Below, piece by piece: positions 36,678 to 44,252 of a DNA stretch of 55,713 nt. Origin of the DNA: Candidatus Methanomethylophilaceae archaeon (lineage in GTDB: Archaea > Thermoplasmatota > Thermoplasmata > Methanomassiliicoccales > Methanomethylophilaceae); the NCBI GenBank assembly GCA_050944155.1, contig JBMNQN010000006.1, positions 1 through 55,713 on the forward strand, read 5' to 3'. A model generated the notes under the pieces. That model was not told the DNA's origin, searched no databases, and was given only the letters and a program-made list of their open reading frames with translations. The position numbers and the translations under genes were made by a program. Within the stretch, counting starts at the first letter, position 1. Each line of letters begins with the position of its first letter.

Positions 36678-36753
36678 GCTTCCCCCTATGCCGGCGGAAT
36701 TATATCCTTTTGACTGACGACTTTTTTTAAATTTGCAGGCGGATACCGTTCCG

Positions 36754-38142
36754 ATGGACGACAGACAATGGCATGCGCTGGTCGACAACATAACTTTGGT
36801 GCAGCGCAACCTTTACAATAACAAAATTCCGGTTCTGATACTTCTGGAAGGATGCAGCGGAAGGGTTCTGGGAAGGGTATCCGGAGACCTGCTGGAAAAA
36901 TTCGAACCCAGAGGTATGAAATACCATCATTTCGACTCCGAGAACCGTTGCGGTCCGAAGGGCAACATCTCTTTTCTTGCAAATACTCCGTCGAAAGGAC
37001 AGATTGCCATATACGACAGAGGATGGTATTCCACCATAGCGGAAAGCCTGGAAGACGCCCACTGCGAAGAAATAGACCGCATGGTTTTCGAAACGAATAC
37101 CTTCGAAAGATATCTCGTGGACAACGGCGTGCTTCTGATCAAACTGTTCCTTTTCGCCGAAGAGGACGAACTGGAGGGTCTTCTGGACGCTTTCGGAGAA
37201 CGCCATAAAAAGAAATCCATTCTGAACGACGACCACATAGACGCGGAAATCTACTGCGGCGAGAGAATGAAGGACGTCATAAGGCGCACGGACACCGACA
37301 TAGCCAAGTGGAACATAATACGCATCGAAGACCCGGAAACCACCTCCTACAACAGCATATATGCGATATGCCAGTCGATGATCGAGTCGGTAAAAAATCC
37401 GGTGTTTTCTCCCATACACTATCAGAACCCCAAATGCGGAAACCCGAGGATATACGCGGATCTGTCTCAGAAGGCCGAGAATTACAAAGACAAAATGGAC
37501 GAGTACTACCGGAAACTCAAAAAACTGCAGGGCGAACTGGCGGTCAGCGACAAAGCCCTGGTGGTGGTTTTCGAGGGATGGGATGCCGCGGGCAAAGGCG
37601 GAAGCATCAAACGTCTGGCACATGCGCTAAATCCCAGAGGTTACACGGCGGTTCCCATAGGCGTTCCGACCGATGAAGACAAAGATCACACATACCTCTG
37701 GAGATTCTGCTCCCATCTTCCCACGGACGGCCGCATAACCATATTCGACCGCAGCTGGTACGGAAGGATGCTGGTGGAACCCATAGAGATGTTCTGTACC
37801 CACGAAGAATATCTCCGTTCGGGAAGGGAGATAAACGGATTCGAACGGTCGATGGTGAATTCCGGAATAATTCTCGTGAAACTATGGATGGAAATAAGCA
37901 AAGCCGAACAGCTGAACAGGTTTAACGACCGGGTCATCAACCCCATGAAAAACTGGAAGATTACGGACGACGACTGGCGGAACAGGGAGAAGTGGGACAT
38001 TTATTCCGAATATGTGGACAGGATGATCGAAACCACCAACACCCCCGACGCTCCCTGGACGGTCGTGGAATCTGAAAACAAAAAATTCGGCCGCCTGAAG
38101 GTTCTGGAAACCGTGATACGGGCGCTGGAAAAGAATCTCTGA
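36754..38142 (+). CDS. Tandem-domain polyphosphate kinase 2 (polyP:AMP phosphotransferase-like)
   Basis: C-domain FEGWDAAGKGG, FDRSWYGR, WKITDDDWRNR; N-domain is a degenerate copy (LEGCSGRVLG, YDRGWY). Confidence 0.88.
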   Translation: MDDRQWHALVDNITLVQRNLYNNKIPVLILLEGCSGRVLGRVSGDLLEKFEPRGMKYHHFDSENRCGPKGNISFLANTPSKGQIAIYDRGWYSTIAESLEDAHCEEIDRMVFETNTFERYLVDNGVLLIKLFLFAEEDELEGLLDAFGERHKKKSILNDDHIDAEIYCGERMKDVIRRTDTDIAKWNIIRIEDPETTSYNSIYAICQSMIESVKNPVFSPIHYQNPKCGNPRIYADLSQKAENYKDKMDEYYRKLKKLQGELAVSDKALVVVFEGWDAAGKGGSIKRLAHALNPRGYTAVPIGVPTDEDKDHTYLWRFCSHLPTDGRITIFDRSWYGRMLVEPIEMFCTHEEYLRSGREINGFERSMVNSGIILVKLWMEISKAEQLNRFNDRVINPMKNWKITDDDWRNREKWDIYSEYVDRMIETTNTPDAPWTVVESENKKFGRLKVLETVIRALEKNL

Positions 38143-38205
38143 ATTCGGCAATCGACGTTTACGGTATTCGACATTCTTAAATAATACTCGGTCGGTGAAG
38201 CCTCG

Positions 38206-38898
38206 ATGGTCAGCGAACTGAGCGAGAAAATCGCCGGCGAAATCGCCATGTCGAACGAACCCGGCAAGACGATCAGAAAGTGGAGAGAGGAGTTCGGACT
38301 CTCCCAGCAGCAGCTTGCCGACGAGATGGAGATTTCCAATTCCGTCATAAGCGACTACGAATCCGGAAGGAGAAAATCCCCCGGAGCGGCTGTCATAAAA
38401 AAGATGGTGGAATCCTTCATCAAACTGGACAGGGAGGCGGGTTCTCCGGTGGCATCCAAATTTCTTCCGGGCGTGAAAACCGAATGCATCATCGCCATGG
38501 AAGAGTTCGAGGGAGGGGTCGGTTACGACGAGTTCACGGAAGCCATTTCCGGACGGAACCTGAACACCGACCGCACCCCGTCCAAAAAGATTTACGGATT
38601 CACCATAGTGGATTCCGTGAAGGCGATTCTCAATCTCGGCTCCGAAGACTATCTGAAAATATACGGATGGAGCATAGAAAGGGCTCTGATTTTTACCAAC
38701 GTGCACTTCGGAAGGTCTCCCATGGTTGCGATAAGGGCACACCCCCTGACTCCCGCCATGGTTGTCTACCAAAGGCCGGAGAAAGTAGATCCTCTGGCCG
38801 TAAAACTGGCAAAACTGGAGAACATACCGTTGGTGGTCAGCGACCTGTCCGTCGAAGACATGGTCAGACGCCTGAATAAAATCAAGGAAGGGAACTGA
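38206..38898 (+). CDS. Archaeal XRE-HTH transcriptional regulator (COG1709-like)
   Basis: IAGEIAMS, SVISDYESGRRKSPG, ALIFTNVHFGRSPMVAIR. Confidence 0.88.
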   Translation: MVSELSEKIAGEIAMSNEPGKTIRKWREEFGLSQQQLADEMEISNSVISDYESGRRKSPGAAVIKKMVESFIKLDREAGSPVASKFLPGVKTECIIAMEEFEGGVGYDEFTEAISGRNLNTDRTPSKKIYGFTIVDSVKAILNLGSEDYLKIYGWSIERALIFTNVHFGRSPMVAIRAHPLTPAMVVYQRPEKVDPLAVKLAKLENIPLVVSDLSVEDMVRRLNKIKEGN

Positions 38899-39951
38899 AT
38901 GGAAGCAGGAATAGTAAGTTACGGCGCGTACGTACCACGCTACAGAATAAAACCCGAAGAAATCGGGAGAGTTTGGGGCGTGAACGGAAAAGCAATGGGA
39001 GCAGGACTGAAAATCGAACAGAAATCGGTTCCGGCTCCCGACGAAGATGTTGTCACCATAGCGTCCGAAGCGGCAAGATACATGATGGCCAGAGTGCCTG
39101 ACGTGGATCCTAACGAAATAGGAGCCGTTTACGTCGGTTCGGAGTCTCATCCGTACGCGGTTAAGCCCACGTCCGGAATAGTCGCCGAAGTGATCAGAGC
39201 CACCCCGGCTCTCACCGCCGCGGACCTCGAATTCGCGTGCAAAGCGGGAACCGCCGGGATACAGATATGCCTGGGTCTCGTCGGTTCCGGAATGATGAAG
39301 TACGGAGTGGCCGTGGGAGCGGACACCTCCCAGGGAGCTCCCGGGGACGCTCTCGAATACTCGGCTTCCGCCGGAGGCGCCGCGTATCTCATAGGAAAAG
39401 ACAAAGTGATAGCGAAAATCAACAAAACGCTGAGCTTCACAACCGACACCCCCGACTTCTGGAGAAGGGAAGGACAGCCCTACCCCATGCACGGAGGAAG
39501 GTTCACGGGAGACCCGGCGTACTTCCGCCATATAATCTCATCGAGCAAGATGCTCTTCGAAGAATGCGGAACCAAACCCGAGGATTACGACTACGCGGTT
39601 TTCCATCAGCCCAACGGAAAGTTCCCCGAGAGAGTGGCTAAAACTCTGGGATTCACCCCCGAACAGATAGAGTACGGTCTCCTGACTCCCCGTATCGGAA
39701 ACACGTACAGCGGAGCGGTGCCCCTGGGTCTCGCCAATGTTTTGGATAAATCAAAACCCGGAGACAGAATATTCGTCACGTCCTACGGTTCCGGCGCGGG
39801 AAGCGATTCTTTCGACATTACCGTAACCGACGAGATGAAAAATTACAGAAGAGAGAACGCGCCGGTGCTGGAGAAAGTCATCTCCGACCCGGTGTACCTG
39901 GATTACGCCCTGTATGCCAAGTTCAAGGGCAAGATAGTTATGCCGGAGTGA
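38899..39951 (+). CDS. Hydroxymethylglutaryl-CoA synthase (archaeal)
   Basis: [11 protein letters not shown] (Glu), EFACKAGT (Cys), FHQPNGKFP (His), SYGSGAGSD. Confidence 0.95.
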
Positions 39952-39955
39952 TAAA

Positions 39956-41119
39956 ATGAGAGAAGTAGCAATCGTAGGAACCGGAATCACCAAATTCGGA
40001 GAACTCTGGGACAAGTCTTTCAGAGCCATAGGCATCGAAGCGGGAATCAAAGCCATCGCCGACGCAGGAATGTCCGGGTCCGAGGTAGACGGCGTTTTCA
40101 TAGGAAACATGTCTTCCCGTTTCATTAACCAGCAGCACATCGACGCTTTGATTGCGGATTATTCGGGAATGGCCACGAAGAACGTTCCCGCAGTGAGGAC
40201 AGAAGCCGGAGGGGCTTCGGGCGGAGTGGCATTCAGACAGGGAGTCATGGCCGTGGCCTCGGGCATGCACGACGTGGTGCTCGTAGGAGGCGCGGAAAAG
40301 ATGACCGATCTGGACGAAATGAGCACCGCATCCGTCATGGACAGCACCGCCGACGCGGAGTGGGAAGCTTCCATGGGTCTGACCCTGGCTTCGCTTTACG
40401 CGATGATAGCCAGACGCGTAATTCACGACGGTATAGCGACAAGAGAAGAGATAGCGTCCATGGCGGTTCTCGGACACGCCCACGGAGCGTTCAATCCCAA
40501 CGCGCAGTACAGAAAACCGATCAAACTCGAGACGGTTCTGAGGTCCGGAGCGGTCGCCGAACCTCTGGGCATGTTTGACTGCGCTCCGTACTCCGACGGA
40601 GCGGCGGCAGTGGTTCTCGTTCCTCTGGAAGAAGCGAAAAAGATGGGCGCGGATTACGTAAAAGTTTCCGCCGTCAGCCAGGCAAGCGACACGCTGGCAC
40701 TGTTCCAGAGAGAAGACATAACTTCGTTTAAGGCGACGTCAGTCGCGGCCGAGAGGGCGTATAAAATCGCGGGAATAAAACCCAAGGACATCAACGTTGC
40801 CGAAGTTCACGACGATTTCACCATCGGAGGAATACTGGCACTTCAGGATCTGGGCTTCTTTAGGAAAGGAGAGGCGGGAAAAGTCGTGCTGGAAGGAAGG
40901 GTCGGACTCGGAAACGACCTCGTGGTAAACACCTCCGGAGGCCTCAAAGCCTGCGGATATCCCGTGGGAGCGTCCGGAGTGGCGCAGGTCGTGGAAATCG
41001 CGGACCAGCTCAGAAACCGTGCCGGAGACAGACAGGTCAAGGACGCAAGATACGGTCTGGCACAGTCGGTGGGCGGAACCGGTTCCGCCGTAACCGTCAG
41101 CATACTGGAGGCGATGTAA
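39956..41119 (+). CDS. Thiolase-fold protein of the HMGCS/thiolase/DUF35 cluster, with substituted catalytic residues
   Basis: TKFGELW, GAEKMTD, SDGAAAVVL, NTSGGLKA; but EAGGASGG, EVHDDFT and GYP occupy the catalytic positions. Confidence 0.9.
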   Translation: MREVAIVGTGITKFGELWDKSFRAIGIEAGIKAIADAGMSGSEVDGVFIGNMSSRFINQQHIDALIADYSGMATKNVPAVRTEAGGASGGVAFRQGVMAVASGMHDVVLVGGAEKMTDLDEMSTASVMDSTADAEWEASMGLTLASLYAMIARRVIHDGIATREEIASMAVLGHAHGAFNPNAQYRKPIKLETVLRSGAVAEPLGMFDCAPYSDGAAAVVLVPLEEAKKMGADYVKVSAVSQASDTLALFQREDITSFKATSVAAERAYKIAGIKPKDINVAEVHDDFTIGGILALQDLGFFRKGEAGKVVLEGRVGLGNDLVVNTSGGLKACGYPVGASGVAQVVEIADQLRNRAGDRQVKDARYGLAQSVGGTGSAVTVSILEAM

Positions 41120-41523
41120 TGGCAACGGTAGCGAAAGAGTGGAGAGAGATACCCGGAAGGTACAACCTGGAAGGTTCCGAATGCGGAAACTGCGGAAGGA
41201 AATATTTCCCCAAGCGCGACATGTGTCCCCACTGCAGAAGAAATGGATTCGGCAAAATGCATCCGTACAAAGTTTCGCCCAAGGGCGAGATTTTCACGTA
41301 TTCCGTTGTGCACGACGCCCCGGAATCCTGCGGAATGCTGAAGCCCTACGCGGTAGCGCTGGTGAAGACGGACGACGGCCTCCTGATTGCGGGACAGGTC
41401 GTGGACGTCAACCCCGAAGACGTGAAAATCGGAATGCCGGTGAGGGCGGTTCTCCGCAAACTCGGGTCGGACGGACCTGCCGGAGTTCTCCATTACGGGT
41501 TCAAATTCGTTCCGGATCTGTGA
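41119..41523 (+). CDS. DUF35 Zn-ribbon/OB-fold scaffold protein
   Basis: CGNCG...CPHC, PYAVALV, IGMPVRAVLRK, YGFKF. Confidence 0.92.
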   Translation: MATVAKEWREIPGRYNLEGSECGNCGRKYFPKRDMCPHCRRNGFGKMHPYKVSPKGEIFTYSVVHDAPESCGMLKPYAVALVKTDDGLLIAGQVVDVNPEDVKIGMPVRAVLRKLGSDGPAGVLHYGFKFVPDL

Positions 41524-41547: not shown

Positions 41548-42012
41548 TTAATTTTTCATAACGTCCACGGACGCCACGTGTTCCAGCACAAGCTCCGTGT
41601 ACGGAATTCCGCATTCTTCCAATCCCATGTTGCGTGCGGAAACTTCGTCGCATTCGATAAGCGAGTCGTCGCGAATGGCGTTCAGTTTCTCCGGTATTTT
41701 TCCCTTGAAACCGTTTATGACGAGAATTACAAAGGAATTCTGACCCTCTTTCGGACTCATTTTGGCGATGGCCTTTCCCACCTGTCTGTCCGCCGCCGCA
41801 TAGAGTATCGTTTCCGAGAGAATATTTTTGGAACGGTTCGTTTTTTTCGAAAAGGCTCTTTCCGCGTGGAGATAGGCGGAAACAAGATGGTCCTTTCCGC
41901 ACACGTAATCCGGATCGAAAATCACCGTTTCCATACCTTCGGAGGCGAAACATCTCCCTATTTCTTCGGGAGTTTTTCCGCAGCGTATGCCCATTACGGC
42001 GATTCCGTCCAT
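41548..42012 (-). CDS. cgi121: KEOPS complex subunit Cgi121
   Basis: HLVSAYLHAERAF, NRSKNILSETILYAAADRQVGKAI, ELVLEHVA. Confidence 0.85.
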   Translation of the reverse strand: MDGIAVMGIRCGKTPEEIGRCFASEGMETVIFDPDYVCGKDHLVSAYLHAERAFSKKTNRSKNILSETILYAAADRQVGKAIAKMSPKEGQNSFVILVINGFKGKIPEKLNAIRDDSLIECDEVSARNMGLEECGIPYTELVLEHVASVDVMKN

Positions 42013-42100: not shown

Positions 42101-43033
42101 ATGAAAAACGAATGGATAAAAGTGGCCGCGCCTGCGACTACGTCTAACATCGGACCGGGGTTCGACACCTTCGGACTTGCACTCAAGGAACCTTATGACA
42201 CCATCGAGGGAAGAATAACCGAATCCGGAATTTCGGTTCTGGAAATCACCGGACCCGGAGCGGACAGCATTCCGAAAGAGCCCGAAAGAAATTCTGTATG
42301 CATAGCCGCCGAAGAAGTCATCAGAAGATCCGGCGAAAAGTTCGGCATTGAGTTCAAAATACACAAAGGCATCAGACCGGGAAGCGGACTCGGTTCGTCC
42401 GGAGCGTCCGCCGCTGGAGGAGCCTACCTGGCGAACATAATGTGCGGAGAAAAACTCAACAAAAGCGAACTGGTTCTCTGCGCGGCCCATGCCGAAGACG
42501 TAACTTCCGGCGGATTCCACGCGGACAACGTGGCTCCGTGCATTATGGGCGGATTCACCGTAATAAGGTCTTACGAGCCTTTCGACGTCATAAAAATCAA
42601 TCCCCCGGAGGATCTGGGATTCGTCGTAACTCTTCCGGAAATTTACGTAGAAACAAAGGAGGCCAGAAAAGTTCTCCCCAAGGAAGTCCCCCTCAAACAT
42701 CTGATATTCCACGCCGGAAACGCCGCAGCCCTGACTTACGGAATGGCCGTGGGGGATCTGAAACTCATAAGCAGGTCCGTTCAGGATCTGATTTCCGAAC
42801 CCAACAGGGCGAAGCTCGTACCGTACCTCAAAGAAGCCGAATCCGCCGCACTCTCCCACGGGGCGCTGGCGGCCTTCCTCGGAGGTTCCGGACCGTGCAT
42901 AATGTCCTTTTTCGACAAGAGTACGCATGACGGAAACGTAATCGCGGAAAGCACGAAACAAATCTACGACGACGCGGGTATCGGGTGCAAAACGTGGGTG
43001 ACCGACTGCGGCGAAGGATGCAGGAGAATCTGA
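42101..43033 (+). CDS. thrB: Homoserine kinase
   Basis: APATTSNIGPGFD, PGSGLGSSGAS, HADNVAP, GGSGP. Confidence 0.94.
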   Translation: MKNEWIKVAAPATTSNIGPGFDTFGLALKEPYDTIEGRITESGISVLEITGPGADSIPKEPERNSVCIAAEEVIRRSGEKFGIEFKIHKGIRPGSGLGSSGASAAGGAYLANIMCGEKLNKSELVLCAAHAEDVTSGGFHADNVAPCIMGGFTVIRSYEPFDVIKINPPEDLGFVVTLPEIYVETKEARKVLPKEVPLKHLIFHAGNAAALTYGMAVGDLKLISRSVQDLISEPNRAKLVPYLKEAESAALSHGALAAFLGGSGPCIMSFFDKSTHDGNVIAESTKQIYDDAGIGCKTWVTDCGEGCRRI

Positions 43034-43034
43034 A

Positions 43035-44252
43035 ATGAGCAATCACAAAGTAATATGCTGGGACTGCGGCGCGGAAGTCGACAATCCCTTTGTAAGTAGA
43101 TGTACGAAGTGCGGAGGTCTCCTTACCGTCAGGATGGATTTGGACAAAGTCCGCGGAATGAAACCTTCGGACCTTCGGAACAGGCCTCTGGGAGTCTGGA
43201 GATACGCGGAATTCATGCCCGTCGACCCCGCTCACAAAGTGTCTATCCAGGAAGGCGGAACCCCCCTGTACAAAACGGATGCGCTTGCGTCCAAAGCAGG
43301 TCTGAAGGAGATGTTCATCAAATTCGAGGGACTCAACCCTACAGGATCTTTCAAAGACCGCGGGATGACCGTAGGAGTTTCCCACGCCAAAGAACTGGGA
43401 GCCGAAGTCGTCGGATGCGCTTCGACCGGAAACACTTCCGCGTCCCTTGCGGCATACGCAGCCAAAGCCGGAATGAAATGCGCCGTTTTCCTCCCCTCGG
43501 GAAAAGTCGCGGCGGGAAAGCTTGCGCAGGCGCTCTTTTACGGAGCAAAAGTTCTCTCCGTCGACGGCAACTTCGACGACGCTCTGGCACTTGCGATAAA
43601 GATGTCCGAGGAGAGGAAAATCTACCTTCTCAATTCCATAAACCCGTACCGTCCGGAGGGTCAGAAATCCGTTCTTTTCGAGATTATGGATCAGCTTGAT
43701 TACGATATTCCGGACAGAATAGTTCTCCCCGTGGGCAACGCCGCCAACATCTGGGCCGTTTACAAAGCGCTCACGGAACTGAAAGAAGTGGGCTGGATCG
43801 ACAGGATGCCCATGCTCACCGGAATACAGGCTGAAGGTGCGTCTCCCGTGGCACGCGCTTTCGGAAAACACAACGAAGATTTCGTACCCGTGGACAACCC
43901 GGAAACCCTGGCCACCGCCATACGCATAGGCAACCCGGTCAGCGGAAGGAAAGCTCTTGCGGCTATATACAACACCGGAGGATATTCCGCAACCGTCACG
44001 GACGACGAAATAGTGAACGCCCAGAAAGCGATAGCCAGAAACGAAGGTGTATTCGTGGAACCCGCTTCCGCCGCGTCCGTCGCCGGAATATTCAAGCTGA
44101 GGGAACAGGGAATAATCGGAAAGGACGAAAGAGTCGTCGCCATATGCACGGGCAACGGTCTCAAAGACCCGGACACCGCCGTGAAATACAGCGAACCCCC
44201 GATTAAGTGCGCCAACTCCGTGGAAGACGCGGAACGCATACTCTCTCAGTGA
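43035..44252 (+). CDS. thrC: Threonine synthase
   Basis: EGLNPTGSFKDRG, CASTGNTSAS, PVGNAAN, EPASA, CTGNGLKD. Confidence 0.95.
   Translation: MSNHKVICWDCGAEVDNPFVSRCTKCGGLLTVRMDLDKVRGMKPSDLRNRPLGVWRYAEFMPVDPAHKVSIQEGGTPLYKTDALASKAGLKEMFIKFEGLNPTGSFKDRGMTVGVSHAKELGAEVVGCASTGNTSASLAAYAAKAGMKCAVFLPSGKVAAGKLAQALFYGAKVLSVDGNFDDALALAIKMSEERKIYLLNSINPYRPEGQKSVLFEIMDQLDYDIPDRIVLPVGNAANIWAVYKALTELKEVGWIDRMPMLTGIQAEGASPVARAFGKHNEDFVPVDNPETLATAIRIGNPVSGRKALAAIYNTGGYSATVTDDEIVNAQKAIARNEGVFVEPASAASVAGIFKLREQGIIGKDERVVAICTGNGLKDPDTAVKYSEPPIKCANSVEDAERILSQ

Follow-up and report, generated by a model that had tools for sequence, protein, structure and literature searches.

A thiolase-fold protein that lacks its catalytic cysteine is retained between HMG-CoA synthase and DUF35 in Methanomethylophilaceae and many other Thermoplasmatota, probably as a pseudoenzyme

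The contig JBMNQN010000006.1 of a Candidatus Methanomethylophilaceae archaeon (assembly GCA_050944155.1), whose 55,713 nucleotides are the window analyzed here, carries on its forward strand a gene for a thiolase-fold protein of 387 amino acids (positions 39956 to 41119), which is located between the genes for an archaeal-type 3-hydroxy-3-methylglutaryl-coenzyme A (HMG-CoA) synthase (HMGCS) and a DUF35 protein. This operon thiolase has lost catalytic residues, including the nucleophilic cysteine; it is under purifying selection and keeps its place in a conserved gene order; an intact type II thiolase is encoded elsewhere in the genome; and the two traits are distributed together across the phylum Thermoplasmatota. 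We consider it likely that the operon thiolase is a pseudoenzyme kept as a structural and CoA-site partner of the truncated HMGCS, and that the type II thiolase took over catalysis. The source assembly has a size of 1.04 Mb and is 92% complete, and named sources place the close homologues of the protein in the Methanomethylophilaceae.

The reading frame of the operon thiolase is open and full length and, as the preliminary description of this DNA had stated, tightly coupled to both neighbors: the HMGCS stop codon (positions 39949 to 39951) is followed after a 4-base gap by the thiolase ATG at position 39956, and the thiolase TAA and the DUF35 ATG overlap by one base at position 41119. The product scores above the Pfam cut-offs for both Thiolase_N (E value, 4.1e-22) and Thiolase_C_1 (E value, 2.8e-46), and among solved structures it matches best to the thiolase of the M. 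thermolithotrophicus complex 6esq/6et9 (6esq chain A; E value, 7.9e-106). HMGCS (350 amino acids; positions 38899 to 39951, forward strand) matches best to chain I (E value, 2.6e-149), and the DUF35 scaffold protein (134 amino acids; positions 41119 to 41523, forward strand), which combines a zinc ribbon with an OB fold (Pfam zf-ChsH2 and OB_ChsH2_C), to chain E (E value, 6e-34) of 6esq, so the best solved matches of all three proteins are the three chains of one complex. The two partners had been described as intact, and they are: the HMGCS tetrad E82/C114/H236/N268 and the DUF35 zinc-ribbon cysteines C22, C25, C36, and C39 are invariant in 35 of 35 aligned orthologues. By fold and synteny, the product of positions 39956 to 41119 is the orthologue of the acetyl-CoA acetyltransferase (ACAT) subunit of the HMGCS/ACAT/DUF35 complex. 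It shares with that subunit the thiolase fold, the gene position between HMGCS and DUF35, and the histidine of the HDxF motif (H285), and it lacks the nucleophilic cysteine (CxS) and the histidine of GHx. The source annotations name the gene "acetyl-CoA acetyltransferase," an annotation that, judging from the failure of two of the three defining catalytic motifs, it should not carry.

Translation of the window and alignment to the 6esq/6et9 thiolase bore out the motifs EAGGASGG, HDDF, and GYP that had been read from the DNA at these codons. Where the archaeal complex has EAACASG, the operon thiolase has EAGGASG, with a glycine (G86; codon GGG at positions 40211 to 40213) at the position of the nucleophilic cysteine. 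HDCF is replaced by HDDF, in which the histidine is retained (H285; CAC at positions 40808 to 40810) and an aspartate stands at the cysteine position (D287; GAT at positions 40814 to 40816), and GHA is replaced by GYP, with a tyrosine (Y335; TAT at positions 40958 to 40960) at the position of the GHP histidine; all four codons lie on the forward strand. The preliminary description counted three substituted catalytic positions. This holds for C86 and H335, which are the decisive losses, because the family does not strictly require a catalytic residue at the x of HDxF: alanine stands there in a solved acetyl-CoA acetyltransferase (7yvy, HDAF) and in 44 of the 151 rows of an alignment of 150 representatives and the query. 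Since it has no nucleophile, the operon thiolase cannot carry out the covalent thiolase cycle. A solved relative, PDB 4yzo ("putative acyl-CoA acyltransferase"; E value, 9.7e-61), has a serine at the nucleophile position; in this protein, HDM replaces HDC while GHP is kept, and it offers a structural template for the Cys-less relatives.

The substitutions recur in related genomes. Among 121 close homologues (identity of 72% or more, the query and an identical copy of it being counted among them), none has a cysteine at position 86 (G in 71, D in 33, E in 16, and Q in 1) or at position 287 (N, D, T, V, or A), and position 335 is H in 89, Y in 31, and N in 1. Mapped across the order Methanomassiliicoccales, cysteine at position 86 is absent from all 29 loci, which come from 28 relatives. 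When the residues at positions 86, 285, 287, and 335 are written in this order, the genus of the window reads G/H/D/Y throughout and other families of the order read G-(H/N)-N-D, with D at position 335 in 7 other loci of the order. The catalytic-site motifs are identical in 14 congeneric genomes, and none of the 38 relatives with a match has an interrupted thiolase frame. In RNA libraries of three studies, contigs (runs X15, X16, and X17) extend over the three substituted codons, and no difference from the window is listed there (X19 is without cover at codon 86). Contigs of this kind also cover the whole operon, one from X15 spanning positions 38223 to 41512; they show that the sequence occurs in RNA libraries but say nothing about expression level, strand, or whether the genes share one transcript.

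Selection on the operon was estimated from pairwise dN/dS ratios (NG86 method, within the genus, pairs usable at dS of <2). The ratio is about 0.045 for the operon thiolase (68 of 105 pairs usable), on par with HMGCS (0.053; 58 of 78 pairs) and DUF35 (0.053; 52 of 105 pairs), and 0.042 for the type II thiolase (21 of 45 pairs). Purifying selection on the operon thiolase is strong and constrains it as much as its active neighbors. Read errors, which the preliminary description had itself named as a threat to its claim, are ruled out by the order-level loci, the close homologues, and the RNA-library contigs. More broadly, a sequencing or assembly artefact or a decaying pseudogene has next to no chance of explaining the substitutions, both being refuted by the congeneric genomes, the RNA-library contigs, the 38 open frames, and the low dN/dS.

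To describe which parts of the protein are held constant, site conservation was compared between 12 non-redundant Cys-intact and 40 non-redundant Cys-less orthologues at a threshold of at least 90%. Eighty-seven sites are conserved in both groups, among them E83, A87, S88, and G89 next to the lost cysteine, D214 and G215 of the SDGA stretch, H285, D286, G334, P336, and the C-terminal glycine loop (G373/G374/G376). Nineteen sites are conserved in the intact group only and relaxed in the Cys-less group: A85, C86, C287, F288, H335, and H370, seven sites within positions 125 to 145, positions 159 and 165, and the scattered positions 25, 77, 97, and 309. A single site is conserved specifically in the Cys-less group, where S210 is changed to alanine. 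Residue 86 itself varies by lineage (G, D, E, S, T, or A), as expected if this site has no role. Such a pattern marks a protein whose fold and surface stay under selection while constraint on the catalytic pocket has been lifted, and it does not mark a new active site. With three drifting positions and only one Cys-less-specific site, the noncanonical chemistry that the preliminary description had considered finds no support.

A canonical candidate for the missing activity is present in the same genome. A Thiolase_N search returned two genes only, the operon thiolase and a gene elsewhere in the genome (G000:C12:9185-10357, reverse strand; L002:1105-2283) for a protein of 392 amino acids. Thiolases of the type II (biosynthetic) class have a cysteine nucleophile, a NEAF motif, the GHP histidine, and the cysteine of CxG. 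The second protein has all of these catalytic residues, in the motifs VCGSG, HNEAF, GHPIG, and CLGGG, and its alignment to the acetyl-CoA acetyltransferase 4n44 runs over the full length (E value, 1.9e-139). The proposal that acetoacetyl-CoA comes from another thiolase thereby gained a concrete gene. Together with HMGCS and the operon thiolase, it makes up the three thiolase-superfamily genes of the genome, and no further Thiolase_C_1 or ACP_syn_III_C genes were found beyond these in the 92%-complete assembly. HMG-CoA reductase is present. Neither 3HCDH_N nor ECH_1 had a match in this assembly, so no beta-oxidation or butyrate partner is seen for the type II thiolase, which, within the same assembly, has no visible partner pathway except mevalonate. 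A match to the CoA_trans family was also absent from the assembly (AMP-forming ligases were not searched), and on this ground the activation of scavenged acetoacetate, another source that the preliminary description had put forward, was rejected.

In 40 of 41 relatives the type II thiolase was detected, the exception being a 73%-complete genome, and its identity drops from 83% to 63% in step with relatedness, suggesting that it is old and was inherited vertically within the order. The gene lies outside any lipid or fermentation operon. Its neighbors are an ORF of 438 amino acids (L002:2340-3656), which by its look we take to be a tRNA-modifying enzyme, and an ORF that runs off the end of the locus and is presumably a peptidase.

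The retention of a subunit without catalytic residues may be understood from what is known of the archaeal complex. Archaeal HMGCS is 50 to 100 residues shorter than the bacterial and eukaryotic enzymes, and DUF35 fills that place (PMC11522927; PMC12960953). Complex formation creates a CoA site that is shared by HMGCS and the thiolase (PMC11522927; PMC12960953; PMC12329534). The E-C-H-N tetrad is named for HMGCS, and its replacement abolished HMG-CoA formation (PMC12960953). In the mechanism that we propose, the operon thiolase would have kept its thiolase fold, its CoA-cleft motifs, and its place in the HMGCS/thiolase/DUF35 assembly; since no acetyl-enzyme intermediate would be possible, it would not make acetoacetyl-CoA. 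The type II thiolase would make acetoacetyl-CoA free in solution, and the intact archaeal HMGCS would condense this free acetoacetyl-CoA with acetyl-CoA to HMG-CoA. The dead subunit would be kept because the short HMGCS works only within the tripartite assembly, on which its quaternary structure and the shared CoA site would depend. On this view, the three proteins would still assemble, the type II enzyme would feed HMGCS, and the retained role would be structural and CoA binding. The preliminary description had suggested that the thiolase is retained as a scaffold or CoA-binding subunit; its retention is confirmed by the selection acting on it, while the role itself is deduced from the sequences.

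To see how far this arrangement extends, 201 genomes were sampled from the phylum; 60 outgroup loci were fetched, 40 of which had flanks, and the order HMGCS-thiolase-DUF35 is found in all 40. Ninety operon thiolases from Thermoplasmatota were classified, 28 with and 62 without the cysteine. All 62 genomes with a Cys-less operon thiolase have a type II thiolase (E value of ≤1e-40). Conversely, the operon thiolase is intact in all 16 genomes without a type II thiolase (14 read CHCH and 2 read CHAH, in the four-residue notation used above), absence in four of these 16 meaning that a type II thiolase was not among the matches listed. The same association is visible within one family, in which the genome with a type II thiolase (G115) reads GHCH and five members without it read CHCH. 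On a maximum-likelihood tree calculated with the trait columns removed, five changes of the cysteine state are placed, at least three of which are forced by well-supported branches, and the 30 rows of the order form one clade that is entirely Cys-less.

Two families (f16 and f31) are without the archaeal operon, one with 0 of 16 genomes matching and the other with weak matches only. Their genomes carry a synthase of 524 to 565 amino acids with HMG_CoA_synt_N and HMG_CoA_synt_C domains (for instance, at L103:1351-3048 and L105:553-2130) together with two to four type II matches, which looks like a complete replacement of the archaeal entry module. In five genomes without an operon thiolase, no archaeal-type HMGCS was found either, and no genome of the sample showed the short HMGCS without a thiolase-like neighbor. 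Named loci were also surveyed; 6 of 80 were left out because their longest ORF is not the thiolase frame. Thirty-one of the 74 readable loci are Cys-less, all of them titled Methanomassiliicoccales, Thermoplasmata, or unspecifically, and all readable named loci of Methanomicrobiales, the Methanosarcina type, Methanocellales, Methanobrevibacter, and Micrarchaeota are intact. Among representatives clustered at 50% identity, 57 of 150 lack the cysteine.

Some lineages have lost only the nucleophilic cysteine and kept HDC and GHP (L025 from G023, L069 from G115, L072, and L081, with the states AHCH, GHCH, and DHCH); these look like early stages of decay. Two contigs titled as Bacteroides ovatus and Dialister hominis bins (L109 and L111) carry a Methanomethylophilaceae-like thiolase gene that is 72 to 73% identical, and these titles probably result from mis-binning in public assemblies.

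Several observations weigh against the view that the operon thiolase is a pseudoenzyme displaced by the type II thiolase. Twelve of the 28 Cys-intact operon thiolases coexist with a type II thiolase, so the presence of the latter does not force the loss of the cysteine. An independent-pairs test of cysteine loss against type II presence, which is underpowered, gave two pairs in the predicted direction, none in the opposite direction, and two without a difference (p, 0.5). Aspartate or glutamate recurs at position 86 in many lineages, which could reflect a selected role there, the window having glycine. The dN/dS of the operon thiolase is as low as that of its active partners, a stronger constraint than a passive scaffold might need, and a further function is thus possible. 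The ratio of thiolase to HMGCS distances is 1.47 for Cys-less pairs versus 1.11 for intact pairs, a modest difference between pairs that are not independent. Finally, the gene absences in the source genome rest on an assembly that is 92% complete.

The strong purifying selection would also suit a regulatory or sensing subunit, whose dead cleft binds acyl-CoA or CoA allosterically or captures acetoacetyl-CoA uncleaved and hands it to HMGCS. The CoA-cleft motifs are kept (SDGA at positions 213 to 216, the GGTG loop, and H285), a shared CoA site is described for the homologous complex, and an active in-complex thiolase would be expected to cleave incoming acetoacetyl-CoA, so that inactivation could be advantageous. 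A specific new ligand would be expected to fix new residues in the pocket, but its lining positions (125 to 145, 159, and 165) are relaxed instead; we regard the regulatory explanation as unlikely, and it overlaps with the preferred one, from which it is inseparable by sequence. Equally unlikely in our judgment is a more far-reaching two-thiolase system in much of Thermoplasmatota, in which the in-complex thiolase was inactivated by selection and not by drift, the dead subunit docking the acetoacetyl-CoA made by an acquired bacterial thiolase and handing it uncleaved to the shared site of HMGCS. In the lineage of the window, His285 and Tyr335 might additionally support a new Cys-independent reaction on 3-hydroxy- or 3-oxo-acyl-CoA.

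A slightly more doubtful idea still is that the protein is a neofunctionalised enzyme, with Cys-independent CoA-thioester chemistry (aldol or retro-aldol reactions of the Ltp2/Sal type, or acyl-CoA decarboxylation) in which Y335 and H285 are catalytic in the genus. Cys-less thiolase-fold enzymes with DUF35 partners do exist: the Ltp2/Sal aldolases (PDB 6OK1; PMC12329534) have the SCP2-thiolase fold, a DUF35 partner, and no nucleophilic cysteine, CtSal having glycine at the nucleophile position and TcLtp2 using Tyr294 and Tyr344 (PMC12329534). Tyr344 probably falls at position 335, as deduced from the offset between residues 8 to 359 of the 6ok1 chain and residues 4 to 350 of the query, with Y294 at the histidine of HDCF, and the dN/dS is as low as for active enzymes. 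Nevertheless, these aldolases have YDHF or YDCY with a catalytic tyrosine (PMC12329534), whereas the window protein reads HDDF, is without the Y-D-x-F/Y motif, stands in a mevalonate context, and has unconserved residues at the substituted positions. Tyrosine at position 335 occurs only in part of one family (31 of 121 close homologues), with H, D, N, Q, R, or F elsewhere, and S210A alone does not make up a residue set specific to Cys-less proteins. The gene neighbors are HMGCS and DUF35, with no MaoC-type hydratase or steroid genes among them (the whole genome was not searched for MaoC). That the protein is still a thiolase, condensing acetyl-CoA as usual with another residue such as C209 as the nucleophile, is far less probable again. 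C209 is at least 90% conserved, and some lineages have serine at position 86; yet C209 is equally conserved in the Cys-intact enzymes and is therefore not a replacement, and no cysteine is conserved specifically in the Cys-less group. In the window, position 86 is glycine and the GHP histidine and the HDCF cysteine are lost as well, and changing the HDxF histidine to tyrosine or alanine abolishes activity in characterized complexes (PMC12960953).

Comparison with known systems places the displaced pseudoenzyme that we favor closest to the 6ESQ/6ET9 complex of M. thermolithotrophicus, which has the same three proteins in the same gene order, the E-C-H-N tetrad in HMGCS, and a DUF35 protein with zinc ribbon and OB fold. 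The M. thermolithotrophicus thiolase, with its Cys, HDCF, and GH motifs, is active and channels acetoacetyl-CoA, whereas the window organism has other residues at the three positions and encodes a separate type II thiolase. The bacterial HMGS/ACAT/DUF35 derivatives PhlABC (PpATase), MucABC (SmaATase), and PfACAT/HMGS-DUF35 also retain, as predicted for the window system, one catalytically dead thiolase-fold subunit in a tripartite assembly (PMC12960953). The bacterial complexes are a mirror image of it: there, it is the HMGS-like subunit that lacks activity and the ACAT-like one that has its cysteine (PMC12960953), while in the window the ACAT subunit is dead and HMGS is intact. With the HMGS tetrad intact and the ACAT cysteine absent, the window system does not belong to the Friedel-Crafts acyltransferases of the PhlABC/MucABC type. 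A further difference is that it has probably preserved its pathway role, the supply of HMG-CoA for mevalonate. In type II polyketide synthases, the ketosynthase/chain-length-factor heterodimers also retain a Cys-less member of the thiolase superfamily as an obligatory structural partner; they belong to another subfamily, act on substrates bound to acyl carrier protein, and are paralogue heterodimers not bridged by DUF35.

Full-text literature searches returned no description of a dead operon thiolase in Methanomassiliicoccales or Thermoplasmatota; supplements and the primary structure paper were outside their reach and may bear on novelty. Closest to it comes PMC6107057, which mentions many other, paralogous AACT homologs without the CH motif and states that some archaea have thiolase II. 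The preliminary description had spoken of a remodelled, possibly undescribed entry into the mevalonate pathway. This fits with the result of the literature searches, but the remodelling extends beyond this organism and beyond Methanomassiliicoccales, through much of Thermoplasmatota.

In the available literature, channelling by thiolase, HMGCS, and DUF35 is presented as the archaeal answer to an unfavourable first step of isoprenoid-lipid synthesis. If the channelling thiolase is dead in a large archaeal phylum, this step must run via a free bacterial-type thiolase. On the sampled genomes, this would affect the host-associated methanogens of Methanomassiliicoccales and many other Thermoplasmatota, and it changes the pathway annotation for these organisms. 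The system provides a natural experiment on what the thiolase subunit gives HMGCS apart from catalysis, and it supplies the missing mirror image of the PhlABC-type complexes. Moreover, the steps of a nonorthologous displacement can be seen in one phylum, from the intact operon to the intact operon with a type II thiolase, the dead operon thiolase with a type II thiolase, and the replaced operon. The likely explanation, displacement by an ordinary thiolase, calls for nothing exotic.

The gene that adjoins HMGCS on its upstream side encodes an HTH_3 protein of 230 amino acids (positions 38206 to 38898, forward strand; Pfam HTH_3 E value, 2.6e-12). Of the 40 outgroup loci with flanks, 24 have a homologue next to the operon (41 to 57% identity at the phylum level), as do 28 order-level loci. 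The HTH_3 gene is a conserved fourth member of the cluster and a possible regulator of the operon for mevalonate entry. In four runs, each from a different study, RNA-library contigs start at positions 38205 to 38224, at the HTH_3 start codon. These contig starts, together with the X15 contig spanning the operon, hint weakly at a leaderless transcript of all four genes.

Just upstream of the cluster lies a gene for a two-domain PPK2 polyphosphate kinase (positions 36733 to 38142, forward strand; E value, 3.1e-98, in two matched stretches). Downstream, a homologue of the KEOPS subunit CGI-121 is encoded on the strand opposite to the operon (positions 41548 to 42012, reverse strand), followed on the forward strand by genes for a GHMP kinase (positions 42101 to 43033) and a PALP enzyme (positions 43035 to 44252), which are probably homoserine kinase and threonine synthase.

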